Shown here piece after piece: positions 25,060 to 35,249 of a DNA stretch of 45,289 nt. The stretch lies in contig JBHLLU010000014.1 of the NCBI GenBank assembly GCA_048938895.1, positions 1-45,289 on the forward strand, written 5' to 3'. The DNA is from Promethearchaeota archaeon. GTDB lineage: Archaea; Asgardarchaeota; Lokiarchaeia; Sigyniarchaeales; SOKP01. The stretch's first letter is position 1; each line of letters begins with the position of its first letter. The position numbers and the translations under genes were made by a program. The notes below the pieces were generated by a model, which was not told where the DNA came from, searched no databases, and worked only from the letters and a program-made list of their open reading frames with translations.

Positions 25060-27024
25060 TTATTTTACGATTAGAGGAATATATTTAATTTCTTTCTTAT
25101 TAAGTTTAAATTGATAAATGATTTTATACCTTAGTGCAAATTCTGCTGGTATCTTTTTAATATTATTTGGATGTACCTTACTAATTAATGAAACTCCAGA
25201 ATTGGTAATAGTATTGATAACAATGATTTCAACTTCACTTTTTTCTTCAGATATTTCTAATTTAAGACTATTTACACCGTTTTCAAGCACCACTATGGAT
25301 TCTGGTGAAAACTCATTAGTTATAGCTAACATAATTGTTTTAATATCTTCTGATATATTCTGAATAGTGTAAAGAATGTTTATATTTGAATTAATTTCTT
25401 TTATTTCCTTTTTTATTAATATTCCCGCTTCGGAATACCAGAATAGAATTGAATTCTCCTTTGGTAATATTAAAGAGTTAAACAATGTATGTTTTAGGAT
25501 TTTTTTTTGGAAGTATTTTCTTCCATTTTGATTAATTTCTACTTTATAATCCATCATGCTTCCTATTGATTCATTATTAACATAACAATTGTCCATTAAG
25601 AAATTTCCATGAGTATTAGTTATCTCTTCAATACCAGGGTAGTTCACATGAATTTTTAGATGTGGAAGCGCGTTAAATAATACATTTCTATCTTGTGAAG
25701 AAAAGAATAAATTTGGAGAAAATATAGAATCTTTATCTTTGTTAACTAAAAAGGTACATCTCCCTCCAAATGGACTAAATTGGCAGATCCATTTTGATAA
25801 AAACCATTCAATTACAGGAGAAGATCCTCTGAATTTCCAAATTGGTTTGAAAGTTTTCGCTTTTTCTGTGGATAGCCAATCAAAAATTGTATCTATTGTA
25901 GTTCTATCATCCCATAGTTGCATGCCTGGAACATTCATAAGATATCGTGAAGTAAAATCGCCAAAAGAACCAGGAGCACATCCAAATTCAAATTGTTGTG
26001 ATAAATTATATTTTAATAATTCAATGGTAAGATTTCTCTTCTTATTTTTCTGTGATTGAGATTTAAATCTATTTTCATTACTTCTATAGTATTCCTGATA
26101 ATATTTTATTTCAGGAGATTGTTCAGTATACTCAAACCAATCTTTATATCCATCAATATTTACACTCTCTACCATCCAAGAAGCTTGTCCATTGGGTATT
26201 TTATCTATTTCAAACGATTTTTCATGTCTAATAATATCAGAAAAAAGCTTAACCTCAATCCAACTATTATCAGTAAGTTCCTTAAAAAACAATTTCAAGT
26301 TTTCATGAGATTTTTTATAATCCATATTTCGTGCTATCTGCCAAAAACCAATTACTTCAGCATCTTCAGCATAACATAGTACTTGTTTATCTGAATCAGA
26401 TTCTGTAATTCGATTAAGAAAATTAATAAATTCTGTAGTTTGTCCCGATTGTATTACTCGATTAATTTTTTCTTTAATAATTTGATTATCAGGAAGATAA
26501 AAGAAATCTGTATTTTTACTTTTTATTTTGCGTTTCCATACATGTTCAACTGGTAAGTTATTAGATCTTAACGCACCTTTAAGAATATCATTTTCAACAA
26601 GAGTATAATTATAACCGTATTCTAATAACATACTAATCATTTCTTCATAAAAAACTCGTTCTGCATTCCAGTAACCATTTAATTTTTTCAATTTTGGGAA
26701 TAGATTGTGGATTATAATATGATTCCATTTAATTTGTTTTCTATTTATCCATTCTGAACAAGTATATAGGATATTTTGAGCATATGATGATCCCAGGAGT
26801 TCAAACTGGTTATTATTTAAACCTTCCCGAAAATGTTCAATAGTTTCTGGGTTTTTCCATGCCATTTGCTGCAATAATGTAGCAGACAAATGCCAGTTTA
26901 CTGGTATGTCAGGAAATTCGCCCATTATGATCGGCAAATGCTTGTAGCAACTATGATATGCTACGGGATAATGCATTGAAAAAGGAAAGTTCCCATGAAA
27001 TAAGAGACCGAGTATAACAGACAT
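25060..27024 (-). CDS. Glycoside hydrolase family 57-like protein (alpha-glucan active)
   Basis: HLSATLL, FELLGSSYAQNIL, GYWNAERV (nucleophile Glu), YAEDAEVIG (acid/base Asp); divergent from the mal operon. Confidence 0.75.
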   Translation of the reverse strand: MSVILGLLFHGNFPFSMHYPVAYHSCYKHLPIIMGEFPDIPVNWHLSATLLQQMAWKNPETIEHFREGLNNNQFELLGSSYAQNILYTCSEWINRKQIKWNHIIIHNLFPKLKKLNGYWNAERVFYEEMISMLLEYGYNYTLVENDILKGALRSNNLPVEHVWKRKIKSKNTDFFYLPDNQIIKEKINRVIQSGQTTEFINFLNRITESDSDKQVLCYAEDAEVIGFWQIARNMDYKKSHENLKLFFKELTDNSWIEVKLFSDIIRHEKSFEIDKIPNGQASWMVESVNIDGYKDWFEYTEQSPEIKYYQEYYRSNENRFKSQSQKNKKRNLTIELLKYNLSQQFEFGCAPGSFGDFTSRYLMNVPGMQLWDDRTTIDTIFDWLSTEKAKTFKPIWKFRGSSPVIEWFLSKWICQFSPFGGRCTFLVNKDKDSIFSPNLFFSSQDRNVLFNALPHLKIHVNYPGIEEITNTHGNFLMDNCYVNNESIGSMMDYKVEINQNGRKYFQKKILKHTLFNSLILPKENSILFWYSEAGILIKKEIKEINSNINILYTIQNISEDIKTIMLAITNEFSPESIVVLENGVNSLKLEISEEKSEVEIIVINTITNSGVSLISKVHPNNIKKIPAEFALRYKIIYQFKLNKKEIKYIPLIVK

Positions 27025-31993: not shown

Positions 31994-33610
31994 ATGGCCA
32001 AAGTAAAATATGAAAATGTTACTAAAAAGTTTGGAAATTTTACAGCAGTAAATAATTTTAATCTAGAAATCGAAGATCACGAATTTCTTTGCTTAGTAGG
32101 ACCATCTGGTTGCGGGAAATCTACGACATTACGAATGCTTGCAGGATTGGATCAGATAACTGAAGGTACAATAACAATAGGAGATCGAATTGTCAATGAG
32201 GTTGACCCAAAAGAAAGAGGGATCGCAATGGTATTTCAGAGTTATGCCTTGTATCCACATTATAATGTCTATGATAATTTAGCTTTTGGTTTAAGAGCAC
32301 AATCAACGAAGTCTGCAAAATCAGGGAGATGGCTGTTATTGTTAATGCTTTTAACGATTTACCTTATTATTATCCCCGAAATACTTTATGCAGTTAGTTT
32401 GATTCTCAATATGATCGTTTTTGGTTTTGGAAATACAATTTTAATTGCTGGATTAGTAAGTTATTTAGCGACGATAGTATTATATTCTGATATTCGAAAA
32501 GCCATAAAACAGAAACTGATTTCTTTCATCAGTAATTCTGAACATAAAACACTTTCTTTGATAATATCTTTTTTATTAATAGGACTTATAGCATCTCAAT
32601 TATTGATAATATTTGGCGGTTTAACACTAGCTATAATGCTTACTTCATCATCTCTTCCTCTTGAGTTCTCTATTTTAATTGCGATTATAGCTTATATTAT
32701 CTTTGGTTTAATTCCATATTTATTTATGTTGGTATATTACATTTTCTTCAAGTGGAACCCTGTATTGTTAATACAAGAATATGTTGAGAGAGAAAATGAA
32801 ATCGAAGAGAAAATTGATAATACAGCTAAATTATTGGAACTTGAAGAACAATTGTATAAAAAACCAAAACAATTGAGTGGGGGTCAACGTCAACGGGTAG
32901 CTCTTGGTCGGGCAATAATTCGTAATCCTGTGGTTTTTCTTTTAGATGAACCTCTCAGCAATTTAGATGCAAAACTGAGAGTCCAGATGAGGGCTGAATT
33001 GCAGAGATTATCGAAAAGATTAGGAGTTACGTCGATATATGTAACTCATGATCAAATCGAAGCGATGACATTAGGACATAGGATTGCTGTAATGAATGAA
33101 GGATTATTACAACAAGTTGGGACTCCTGATGAAGTATATTTAAGGCCAATAAACAGATTTGTCGCTGGTTTTATAGGATCTCCCTCGATGAATTTTGTGA
33201 GTGGTAATATTGAAGAAAAAGGTGATATTTTATATTTTATTAGTGATGTTTTAGAATATAAAATTCCTGAAAGATATAAAATATTAAAACAACATCTCAA
33301 TCAAGAAGTAATATTAGGAATCAGACCAGAACATATAAGAGTGAATACTGTTAGTAACGACGAGAATCGATATAAGGTAACTATTGGAGTGTCTGAACCT
33401 GTTGGATCTGATACTTTTATATATATTGATTTTCCTAAACCTATAATTGAGAAGTATGTATATATTGGCTTTCCCAAAGAATTTACAATGATAGTTAAAC
33501 TTGAAGGTATAAGTACTCTTAAAGTAGATGAGGAAGTCGAAGTTACTTTTAGTACTGAGCAAATTCATTTTTTTGAGAAAAAATCAGAAAAGAGAATCGA
33601 GCCTAAATAA
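31994..33610 (+). CDS. malK: Sugar ABC transporter ATPase (MalK-like) with internal hydrophobic insertion
   Basis: GPSGCGKST Walker A, FQSYALYPH Q-loop, LSGGQRQR, LLDEPLSNLD, VTHDQ, FIGSP, GIRPEH TOBE domain. Confidence 0.93.
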   Translation: MAKVKYENVTKKFGNFTAVNNFNLEIEDHEFLCLVGPSGCGKSTTLRMLAGLDQITEGTITIGDRIVNEVDPKERGIAMVFQSYALYPHYNVYDNLAFGLRAQSTKSAKSGRWLLLLMLLTIYLIIIPEILYAVSLILNMIVFGFGNTILIAGLVSYLATIVLYSDIRKAIKQKLISFISNSEHKTLSLIISFLLIGLIASQLLIIFGGLTLAIMLTSSSLPLEFSILIAIIAYIIFGLIPYLFMLVYYIFFKWNPVLLIQEYVERENEIEEKIDNTAKLLELEEQLYKKPKQLSGGQRQRVALGRAIIRNPVVFLLDEPLSNLDAKLRVQMRAELQRLSKRLGVTSIYVTHDQIEAMTLGHRIAVMNEGLLQQVGTPDEVYLRPINRFVAGFIGSPSMNFVSGNIEEKGDILYFISDVLEYKIPERYKILKQHLNQEVILGIRPEHIRVNTVSNDENRYKVTIGVSEPVGSDTFIYIDFPKPIIEKYVYIGFPKEFTMIVKLEGISTLKVDEEVEVTFSTEQIHFFEKKSEKRIEPK

Positions 33611-33704: not shown

Positions 33705-35249
33705 ATGAATAATCCTAGGAGAAAAAAAAGTTTATTTAAAAATTCACAATACATTAGTAGATTTGGGGGAATATTGCTGCACCCAACGAGCTTACCCGGA
33801 GAGTATGGAATTGGAGATCTGGGGCCAGAAGTTTATAAATTTATAGATTTTCTTGAAGAATATGAACAAAACCTTTGGCAGGTCTTATCACTTGGACCCA
33901 CTGGTTATGGAAACTCCCCGTATCAATGTTTTTCAGCTTTTGCTGGAAATCATTTAATCATAAGTCCTGAGAAATTAAATGAAATTCGATTACTAACTAA
34001 AAAAGATTGCAAACCCCAAGAGCCCTTTTCAGATTCAAATGTAGATTTTAGCAAAGTTATTCCTTATAAAGAAGAATTACTCAAAATTGCTTTCGAGAAA
34101 TTCCTAAAAAATCGACCCCTCAAATTAGAGAAGGAATTTAATGAGTTTAAATATAAACATTCGTTTTGGTTAAAAGATTACAGTCTATTTATGTCAATTA
34201 AACATGCTCACGATTTTAAACCTTGGAATAAATGGGACGAAGAACTACGTTATCGAAATATTTCGACCCTAAATCGATGGCAAAAAGAATATGAAAAAGA
34301 GATTGAGTTTCATTCTTTTATACAGTATCTTTTCTTCAAACAATGGAATGAAATAAAAAAATATGGAAATCTTAAAAATATCAAAATAATTGGAGATATC
34401 CCTATTTTTGTAGCCTATGATTCTGTTGATGTTTGGGTAAATCCCGAAAATTATATTCTAAATGATAAAAGAGAATTAAAATTTATTTCAGGAGTCCCAC
34501 CAGATTATTTTTCTGCTACGGGCCAGAGATGGGGAAATCCTTTATATAATTGGAGTTTAATGAAAAATCAAGGTTATCACTGGTGGATTCAACGGATAAA
34601 ACACAATCTTGAACAGGTTGATATATTACGAATAGATCATTTTCGTGGTTTTGAATCATATTGGCAAATCCCAGCATACGAAAAAACAGCTGTCAATGGT
34701 GAATGGATAAAAGGACCTGGATTAGATTTCTTCATTGCATTGAAGGATTCTTTAGGTTCTCTTCCAATTATTGCTGAGGATCTAGGACTAATCACTCGCG
34801 AAGTGGAAGAGTTGCTTTATCAGACAAGTTTCCCTGGTATGCGAGTTTTACAGTTTGCTTTTGATGAATCAGATTCAAATTCTGTTAGCTATAAATATCT
34901 TCCTCACAATTTTTATCCAAATACAATTGTTTACACAGGAACTCACGATAACCAAACTACAAGAGCTTGGTTTGAGAATTTACCTGAAAAATTTAAACGA
35001 AAAGTACTTGATTATACAAATTCAAACGGTAAGGATATTATTGGAGATTTAATTCGTCTAGCTTGGAGTTCTGTTGCCAATATGGCAATTATTCCATTAC
35101 AAGATCTTTTAAGATTAGGAGATGAAGCTAGAATGAATCTTCCGGGATCAGAAAGGAATAATTGGGAATGGCGCTTCAGTTGGAATCAAGTTACGAGTGA
35201 TTATGGAAAAGAGATAAGAAATTTAAGTCGATTATATGGCAGAAATTAA
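33705..35249 (+). CDS. malQ: 4-alpha-glucanotransferase (amylomaltase, GH77)
   Basis: GILLHPTSLPG, SPY..FSAFAGN, GVPPDYFSATGQRWGNP, RIDHFRGF, IAEDLG, YTGTHDN. Confidence 0.96.
   Translation: MNNPRRKKSLFKNSQYISRFGGILLHPTSLPGEYGIGDLGPEVYKFIDFLEEYEQNLWQVLSLGPTGYGNSPYQCFSAFAGNHLIISPEKLNEIRLLTKKDCKPQEPFSDSNVDFSKVIPYKEELLKIAFEKFLKNRPLKLEKEFNEFKYKHSFWLKDYSLFMSIKHAHDFKPWNKWDEELRYRNISTLNRWQKEYEKEIEFHSFIQYLFFKQWNEIKKYGNLKNIKIIGDIPIFVAYDSVDVWVNPENYILNDKRELKFISGVPPDYFSATGQRWGNPLYNWSLMKNQGYHWWIQRIKHNLEQVDILRIDHFRGFESYWQIPAYEKTAVNGEWIKGPGLDFFIALKDSLGSLPIIAEDLGLITREVEELLYQTSFPGMRVLQFAFDESDSNSVSYKYLPHNFYPNTIVYTGTHDNQTTRAWFENLPEKFKRKVLDYTNSNGKDIIGDLIRLAWSSVANMAIIPLQDLLRLGDEARMNLPGSERNNWEWRFSWNQVTSDYGKEIRNLSRLYGRN

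Follow-up and report, generated by a model that had tools for sequence, protein, structure and literature searches.

A MalK-type ATPase of an Asgard archaeon carries hydrophobic hairpins, probably membrane-embedded, inside its nucleotide-binding domain

How does an importer ATPase come to have long hydrophobic segments in the middle of its catalytic domain, when the textbook account of type I ATP-binding cassette (ABC) importers makes the ATPase a peripheral soluble subunit held only by coupling helices? The question is raised by a malK-type gene at 31994..33610 on the forward strand of a 45,289-nt stretch of DNA (the whole of which is called the window) from contig JBHLLU010000014.1 of the Promethearchaeota archaeon assembly GCA_048938895.1. 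The answer favoured here—with the balance of evidence behind it, though with real room for doubt—is that the gene product is a functional MalK-type ATPase serving a CUT1-family importer of maltodextrin/alpha-glucan, and that membrane-embedded hairpins take the place of an external loop, the one between the first two helices of its helical subdomain.

The reading frame is uninterrupted over 538 residues and encodes a complete MalK/UgpC-type ABC ATPase. Pfam ABC_tran matches the protein at 102.5 bits (cut-off 25) and is split into two stretches, the first pairing residues 19-105 with profile positions 1-80 of 137; the regulatory domain is recognised by OB_MalK at residues 395-448 (50.2 bits, cut-off 27) and by TOBE_2 (24.4 bits, cut-off 21). 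Walker A, Q82, LSGGQ, D318/E319, and H352 are invariant in a 60-row family alignment, and the catalytic motifs and TOBE domain are as intact as a first-pass annotation of this DNA had claimed. At the level of subfamilies, the protein passes the NCBIfam UgpC model NF008653 (445.5 bits against a cut-off of 432) and stays below the MalK equivalog NF008233 (366.8 against 568). Its nucleotide-binding domain (NBD) motifs, OB/TOBE domain, UgpC score, and operon with a solute-binding protein and two permeases bearing the EAA motif class it as a CUT1 ATPase on every sequence criterion. The exception is the implicit expectation of a soluble peripheral subunit with a contiguous helical subdomain, since a hydrophobic insert of 163 residues splits that subdomain.

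The first-pass annotation had placed an insert of ~160 amino acids at 32300-32791 (residues 103-266), between NLAFGLR and EIEEKI...LSGGQ, and the split ABC_tran match and alignments with the sequences of solved structures bear it out. Residues 1-103 align with 1-104, and residues 267-535 with 108-368, of the Clostridium thermocellum ATPase 7x0q_A, while residue 268 aligns with residue 108 of Escherichia coli MalK (1q12/2r6g). In this comparison with solved structures, an insert of ~163 residues (102-265) stands in place of a helical-subdomain loop of ~3 residues in canonical CUT1 ATPases, the part replaced being residues ~105-107 of the E. coli segment 99-112. The landmarks fall where they had been described, with NLAFGLR at 95-101, the RKAIKQK linker at 168-174, EIEEKI at 269-274, and LSGGQ at 294-298. 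The claim of about four long hydrophobic stretches likewise agrees with four blocks in the Kyte-Doolittle profile (19-residue window; Table 1), whose peak means of 2.0-2.7 lie in the same range as those of the MalF and MalG helices of the same operon.

The insert is shared by a large set of relatives, as the first-pass annotation had proposed to check in Asgard proteomes. Among the 120 best matches to the whole query protein (to which P-numbers refer), the Walker A-LSGGQ spacing is 98 in 57 canonical proteins of about 365 amino acids and 179-193 in another 57 of the hairpin type, which measure 436-482 amino acids when complete. Three proteins have spacings of 238-240 (P0001 and P0006, with a second hairpin, and P0044, with a stretch rich in lysine and glutamate), three are fragments lacking the motif pair, in which the spacing is unmeasurable, and the query alone, with four helices, reaches 258. 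The two-helix relatives, P0002-P0042 and others (445-480 amino acids), have in common with the query an ~82-residue, two-helix insert between FGLR and E-x-EIEEKV, with a tyrosine in helix 1 and an arginine after helix 2. P0044, a metagenome protein of 534 amino acids, has its lysine/glutamate-rich, low-complexity stretch of ~45 residues just before hairpin helix 1.

Source names on the hairpin-bearing proteins are labels of Asgard metagenome-assembled genomes (MAGs; Promethearchaeota, Thorarchaeota, Hodarchaeales, Harpocratesius), with two exceptions. The hairpin segment of P0076, labelled "Methanobacteriota archaeon", matches locus L127 from a genome of the window's own GTDB phylum (G056). 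The label of P0025, "[Eubacterium] cellulosolvens", would point to a bacterial origin, an idea that was rejected; two MAG proteins of Promethearchaeota fall in its 90% cluster, and the name therefore probably stems from a stray contig. When the two-helix protein P0003 was searched against 400 genomes of the phylum, full-length hairpin-type matches were found in 15, including the genome of the window: genus g1 contributes G000 and six of the 53 other genomes scored, and families f3, f16, f14, and f15 contribute two, one, two, and three. Many other genomes of the phylum have only a canonical MalK, and G186, G211, and G225 hold both kinds; the distribution across the phylum is patchy.

When a profile built from the insert alone was compared with 1.84 billion cluster representatives, five proteins matched at E<=0.001. 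Three of these, at E<=1e-10, match at the same protein position (102/103 to 188-190) and comprise two known full-length members and one 199-residue fragment; the hairpin was not detected in that set as a free-standing protein or within another family. A word-based homologue search with the insert alignment returned nine matches, all already known, its candidates being crowded by chance hydrophobic words, and a locus search with universal MalK motifs kept 80 loci, all 80 of them canonical MalKs, mostly bacterial. Five MalK-like proteins of family f13 (L128-L132, from G038, G036, G014, G023, and G032) are longer than canonical ones, at 442-445 amino acids, and were set aside as lying outside the hairpin family, having no hydrophobic peaks; one G014 match contains TAA. 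By sequence, the insert architecture defines a whole Asgard MalK family.

Such breadth bears directly on whether the insert is an artefact, whether of a chimeric assembly or of a pseudogene, or else an intein or other intervening segment excised before protein maturation. Chance is excluded because the frame stays open throughout at a genomic G+C content of ~30% and 57 of the 120 best homologues have a homologous insert at this position; with the three of longer spacing, the insert recurs at one site in proteins from many assemblies. The junctions, which the first-pass annotation had wished to see checked for chimerism, were compared over 32150-32950 with Logan contigs (assembled sequences rather than raw reads) from four runs in three studies, X2 and X3 being runs of the study from which the probable source sample also comes. 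A 2,142-nt contig, X2 record 3, covers 32270-32950 with five substitutions and no gaps, and X3 record 7 covers 32270-32702; X6 record 18 crosses the left junction (32244-32394) and X4 record 14 the right (32536-32851). No indels at the insert junctions or at the hairpin boundary are reported in these contigs.

No intein or Hint family occurs among the nine Pfam families matched by the query at E<=0.01, in keeping with the earlier statement that intein motifs are lacking. Nor does the segment have the character of a removable intervening sequence, consisting as it does of hydrophobic helices conserved as protein and under selection at the amino-acid level. With these observations against it and no supporting point found, an artefact has a probability close to negligible.

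Runs X2, X3, and X4 also hold a second type of contig, which shares 32270-32304 with the window, departs from it for the following ~104 letters, and agrees once more over 32421-32491. The letters of its loose end correspond to the P0006 sequence after helix 2, so it probably derives from a related, co-occurring organism with a four-helix protein.

In hairpin 1, a basic N-terminal flank is followed by a hydrophobic helix, a short loop, a second hydrophobic helix, a conserved [ST]-[DE]-x-R turn, and a basic amphipathic helix (residues 166-180, IRKAIKQKLIS), directly after which hairpin 2 is inserted. Over the 60 rows, the median lengths are 25 residues for helix 1, 8 for the loop, and 19 for helix 2; the loop of hairpin 2 measures 5. 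Lysine plus arginine averages 2.90 in the N-terminal flank of hairpin 1, 0.53 and 0.05 in its helices, 0.18 in its loop, and 3.03 in the C-terminal flank (60 aligned proteins). Flanks rich in these residues around a loop almost free of them form the positive-inside pattern expected if both flanks are cytoplasmic. Of the 60 rows, 55 retain Y123 and 55 retain R168, the arginine being invariant in a 14-row alignment of the insert. An AlphaFold2 (AF2) monomer model built from the 60-row alignment (mean predicted local distance difference test score, pLDDT, 84.9) places helices at 106-141, 145-163, 165-180, 182-217, 223-253, and 256-280, the pLDDT of ten-residue blocks being 85-94 in hairpin 1 and 74-85 in hairpin 2.

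Membrane insertion of the hairpins is probable on these grounds. The same helices might instead lie outside the bilayer, as a cytosolic bundle or in monotopic, in-plane association with the membrane surface; the very short inter-helix loops and a first helix modelled at 36 residues would suit such an arrangement. It is nonetheless improbable, since the hydrophobic lengths fit membrane spans, the helices are poor in lysine and arginine between flanks that are rich in them, and the hydropathy equals that of the MalF and MalG helices.

Purifying selection gives a further measure of the hairpin. In the closest pair of loci, L115/L116, hairpin 1 has a ratio of nonsynonymous to synonymous substitution rates (dN/dS) of 0.117, compared with 0.038-0.055 in the NBD parts; four further pairs give 0.17-0.45 and 0.04-0.10, respectively, and in two pairs that include the query, dS for hairpin 1 is saturated and yields no ratio. 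As judged from these comparisons, hairpin 1 is constrained, though less than the catalytic core.

The earlier description of a single ~160-residue segment stands as to its reality; as a unit it does not, for it combines the ~82-residue family-wide hairpin with a recent, clade-specific second one. Among the 120 best homologues, hairpin 2 is confined to P0001 and P0006 in addition to the query. These second hairpins are homologous: the Smith-Waterman (SW) score is 67 between the query and P0001 (shuffles 35.3 +/- 6.4, 0 of 500 reaching 67) and 138 between P0001 and P0006 (0 of 500), the query and P0006 giving a weaker 46, reached by 27 of 500. An internal duplication was considered and rejected, the SW score of 47 between hairpins 1 and 2 being reached by 49 of 500 shuffles (37.9 +/- 6.4). 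A quick tree of the insert-free core, with a thin set of four canonical outgroups and leaving out P0043 and P0046, places all hairpin forms on one side of a branch with SH-aLRT support of 99; the query groups with P0001 (support 92) within an unresolved group that also holds P0006 and the two-helix proteins P0003 and P0004. Two-helix and four-helix forms are 69-86% identical in the core. The simplest reading of these sequences is that hairpin 2 was gained once, recently.

Hairpin 1 may be the functional membrane anchor, with hairpin 2 a tolerated, essentially neutral addition without a role of its own. This possibility is less likely than the favoured reading, and it draws on the confinement of hairpin 2 to a shallow, partly unresolved clade adjoining two-helix forms and on the lower pLDDT. 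Divergence points the same way: between the query and L123, the sole informative pair for hairpin 2, dN is 0.70 for hairpin 2 (with dS saturated), 0.365 for hairpin 1, and 0.06-0.12 for the NBD. Sporadic gains of hydrophobic hairpins are seen, too, in the MalG proteins of L119, L120, and L123, and hydrophobic additions therefore seem easily tolerated in this system. Against neutrality, hairpin 2 stays open, hydrophobic, and collinear in three diverged genes, as the two SW scores unmatched by any shuffle attest, and it keeps an even number of helices, which preserves the topology of the NBD.

What the insert might do is suggested by where it lies. According to PMC6906923, the helical subdomain of MalK is the docking site for the EAA coupling helices of MalF and MalG, and PMC3150292, on molecular dynamics of MalFGK2E, describes residues 99-112 of MalK as an external, flexible segment that touches the coupling helices directly and ranks with the regions responding most strongly to the bound nucleotide. 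In the favoured reading, both flanks of each hairpin would lie in the cytoplasm and each hairpin would cross the membrane or dip deeply into it. Each MalK of MalFGK2 would thereby be an integral membrane subunit with four helices here and two in most relatives, adding eight helices per complex here and four in most relatives. The hairpins would rise from the membrane-facing edge of MalK at the segment that touches the coupling helices and would stand beside MalF or MalG. That segment would shift with the nucleotide state, and the most likely effect of the hairpins would be to keep the ATPase permanently attached to its own pair of permeases; moving with the helical subdomain, they could also couple ATP binding mechanically to the transmembrane domains by an additional route. 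The second hairpin would probably only enlarge the anchor. The earlier suggestion of a membrane-anchored MalK is favoured by hydropathy, flank charge, the AF2 model, conservation, selection, and the point of insertion, the insertion into the membrane being itself deduced from these.

An alternative role, as a sensor or docking element rather than a passive anchor, would have the hairpin read the state of the membrane or bind a partner in the importer, either a four-helix module of MalG or the membrane anchor of MalE, and so regulate the ATPase. The point of insertion, among the segments most responsive to nucleotide state, would suit such a function, as would the company the hairpin keeps. MalG has an N-terminal extension in which W58-N59-R60, Y63, G68, W71, P76, W145, S149, and W169 are invariant in all 13 hairpin-MalK operons, and the WNR motif occurs in none of the six canonical-MalK operons of the phylum. 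The operons compared are kin and hence not independent, and the two features may occur together simply because all descend from one operon family; moreover, the positions conserved in the extension are predicted to fall in outward-facing loops, remote from the hairpin's cytoplasmic flanks. A complex prediction of insert residues 96-275 with MalG gave an ipSAE of 0.00 twice, in runs without controls, and speaks neither for nor against such a contact. On balance, a sensor or docking role is unlikely.

Some bacteria use one MsmX/MsmK-type ATPase for several importers, and a hairpin might tether such a promiscuous ATPase, common to several CUT1 permease pairs. The idea was rejected as very improbable because the genome has a single CUT1 system: at 98.7% completeness and 7.5% contamination, it encodes one OB_MalK ATPase and one CUT1 permease pair, both in the malEFGK operon. 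The relatives G186, G211, and G225 also hold, as noted, a separate canonical MalK.

The permeases of related operons help to set the hairpin in context. The order malE-malF-malG-malK is kept in 13 of 13 related loci where the contig allows it to be seen, the MalKs having two or four hydrophobic peaks; where complete, MalF measures 491-635 and MalG 494-591 amino acids, and the MalGs have an invariant EAA coupling motif. The extra hydrophobic stretches of MalG lie in the core in L119:9375-11150(-) and in the linker before the core in L120:9455-11155(-) and L123:7924-9669(-). The six canonical-MalK operons of the phylum have either a fused MalF-MalG of 671-726 amino acids or giant MalF and MalG proteins of 640-781. 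The single fused protein is found in L133-L136 (G267, G147, G182, G184), where one or two open reading frames (ORFs) of 154-161 codons directly follow malK. In L137 and L138 (G061, G058), a canonical MalK of 379 amino acids stands beside a MalF of 640-676 and a MalG of 768-781, with 11-15 hydrophobic peaks. The small ORFs, which have 3-4 hydrophobic peaks and lie downstream of canonical malK in six loci, were considered as free-standing equivalents of the hairpin and dismissed, all their insert-profile scores being negative.

Several points weigh against the favoured reading. Large permeases also accompany canonical MalK in the phylum, so that enlarged MalF and MalG are not evidence of hairpin binding, and the hairpin is not accounted for by permease size alone. 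The amino-acid, molybdate-type, and PotA-like importer ATPases of the genome are ordinary soluble ABC proteins, the PotA-like ones on contig C28 having no hydrophobic peaks. Membrane insertion is deduced from hydropathy, charge bias, and a monomer model, and the way the hairpins are turned with respect to the NBD is likewise presumed. The reality, conservation, and position of the insert are observed, while the partner it packs against and its functional effect are what we infer. The rapid divergence of hairpin 2 from L123, given above, belongs on the same side.

Within the window, the gene lies in an operon flanked by carbohydrate-active enzymes (Table 1). The GH77 gene is syntenic in six related loci out of 13, every one from genus g1 (L115-L119 and L123), and the GH57 and GH77 neighbours together point, by context, to alpha-glucan or maltodextrin as the substrate taken up. 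MalE has hydrophobic segments at its N terminus and at C-terminal residues 449-476, and MalE homologues of related loci also show two peaks. The core of MalG (residues 246-527) matches positions 12-295 of the 296-position NCBIfam MalG profile.

Table 1. Features of the malEFGK locus (window coordinates) and of the peptide-importer ATPases with N-terminal extensions (locus coordinates). GH, glycoside hydrolase.
Feature	Position	Strand	Basis or remark
GH57-family glycoside hydrolase, divergent, upstream of malE	25060..27024	-	syntenic in related loci
Solute-binding protein (malE; SBP_bac_1/SBP_bac_8), 479 aa	27311..28750	+	Pfam
malF-type permease, 523 aa	28821..30392	+	about 9 hydrophobic peaks; BPD_transp_1 only at residues 346-507
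malG-type permease, 527 aa	30396..31979	+	EAA coupling motif intact
MalG N-terminal extension, residues 1-245, four hydrophobic helices	30396-31130	+	no Pfam match
malK-type ABC ATPase, 538 aa	31994..33610	+	catalytic motifs, OB_MalK/TOBE_2 regulatory domain, NCBIfam UgpC
NBD, N-terminal part, residues 1-101 (Walker A, Q-loop, helical-subdomain helix 1; ends NLAFGLR)	31994..32296	+	Pfam ABC_tran 19-105; 7x0q_A 1-104
Hairpin 1, residues 102-180 (~82-aa family-wide insert), probably membrane-inserted	32297..32533	+	alignments, charge distribution, AF2, dN/dS 0.12-0.45
Hairpin 1, hydrophobic helix ~113-138	32330-32407	+	
Hairpin 1, hydrophobic helix 147-165	32432-32488	+	
Hairpin 2, residues 181-265 (~80 aa, clade-specific), probably membrane-inserted	32534..32788	+	hydropathy, AF2, homology to second hairpin of P0001
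Hairpin 2, hydrophobic helices ~185-217 and ~223-253, loop SSSLP	32546-32644, 32660-32752	+	
NBD remainder and regulatory domain, residues 266-538 (helical-subdomain helix 2, LSGGQ, Walker B, H-loop)	32789..33610	+	7x0q_A 108-368; Pfam
GH77 4-alpha-glucanotransferase (amylomaltase), downstream	33705..35249	+	Pfam E 4.7e-177
Opp/Dpp-type ATPases (ABC_tran and oligo_HPY), 582-597 aa, putative starts	L141:1375-3168, L148:1360-3108, L146:1354-3111, L144:1399-3171	-	

Membrane-type additions are found on other importer ATPases of the same genome. Five Opp/Dpp ATPases (contigs C65, C125, and C142) have N-terminal hydrophobic extensions: in L141, L148, L146, and L144, these comprise about 270 residues with 6-7 hydrophobic peaks and no Pfam match, and in the fifth, L142 on C125, about 250 residues with 4 peaks, in an open frame of 1,068 residues ended by the edge of the locus. 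The extensions have no similarity to the MalK hairpin profile, and an internal hairpin is absent from the Opp/Dpp ATPases of this genome that were examined. Two further Opp/Dpp ATPases of 418 amino acids on contig C51 (L140:571-1827(+) and L140:1849-3105(+)) have an extra charged, non-hydrophobic stretch between Walker A and the signature, a spacing of 167-172 against 105-127 in other Opp/Dpp ATPases.

These proteins invite a bolder and distinctly speculative reading: Asgard archaea may repeatedly and independently have made soluble type I importer ATPases into integral membrane proteins, the routes being an internal hairpin in MalK, doubled in the query, and, on Opp/Dpp ATPases of the same genome, multi-helix extensions at the N terminus, with the MalK hairpin as a second, membrane-embedded coupling element. 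If this were true, repeated membrane anchoring would point to a lineage-wide constraint on the assembly of importers or on their retention in the membrane, and the MalK hairpin would travel with the helical subdomain through the ATP cycle.

On the question of novelty, the insert is covered by no PDB chain, Pfam model, or NCBIfam model searched, and no description of it was found in the full texts searched (supplementary files and subscription journals not included) or in the available part of the Asgard transporter survey PMC7997004. The first-pass annotation had raised the possibility of an undescribed architecture; no description, structure, or family model was indeed found, but the architecture belongs to a whole Asgard MalK family rather than to this gene alone. 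The protein is a real and conserved MalK variant, apparently undescribed, here in an enlarged four-helix form.

A conserved family that threads membrane helices through the loop that senses nucleotide and touches the coupling helices would challenge the generality of the textbook layout. Hairpin MalKs offer a natural experiment on how the motion of the helical subdomain is transferred to the membrane domains, for which the two-helix and four-helix forms, so similar in the core, are ready comparison constructs, and they raise the question of how a hairpin amid a cytosolic enzyme is targeted and inserted. Together with the membrane segments on other importer ATPases of the genome, this Asgard trait may reflect a membrane-protein assembly peculiar to the closest archaeal relatives of eukaryotes.

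Among known systems, the nearest are the canonical MalK, MsmX, UgpC, and SugC proteins (7x0q, 2d62, 1g29, 1v43, 6yir, 8ja7, and 1q12/2r6g), which have the same NBD motifs, OB/TOBE domain, and operon partners, with sequence E-values to the query down to 2e-109. The best Foldseek matches of the query model are canonical MalK, MsmX, and SugC, at target-normalised TM-scores of 0.77-0.88; normalised to the query, the scores are just 0.53-0.60 because the insert has no counterpart. Where the query has 163 residues, canonical CUT1 ATPases, solved and curated, have about 3.

ABC half-transporters, such as exporters of the Sav1866/MsbA type, join a complete six-helix transmembrane domain (TMD) with coupling helices to one end of the NBD. 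The query resembles such end-to-end TMD-NBD fusions in carrying transmembrane-type helices and an NBD on one polypeptide. It differs in that the two- or four-helix element of the family lacks a permease fold and lies inside the NBD, with MalF and MalG separate; the four internal helices of the query match no permease family in Pfam and do not make up a complete, end-joined TMD. The Opp/Dpp ATPases (family PepT) share with MalK the addition of membrane-type helices to a normally soluble importer NBD in the same lineage, whereas their helices are N-terminal in this genome and those of MalK internal. Closest of all are the two-helix Asgard MalKs, which have a homologous hairpin 1 at the same site, with its tyrosine, arginine, and isoleucine landmarks, in the same malEFGK operon with the MalG extension; from these, the query, P0001, and P0006 are set apart by a second hairpin of ~60-80 residues after the amphipathic helix, giving four helices per MalK.

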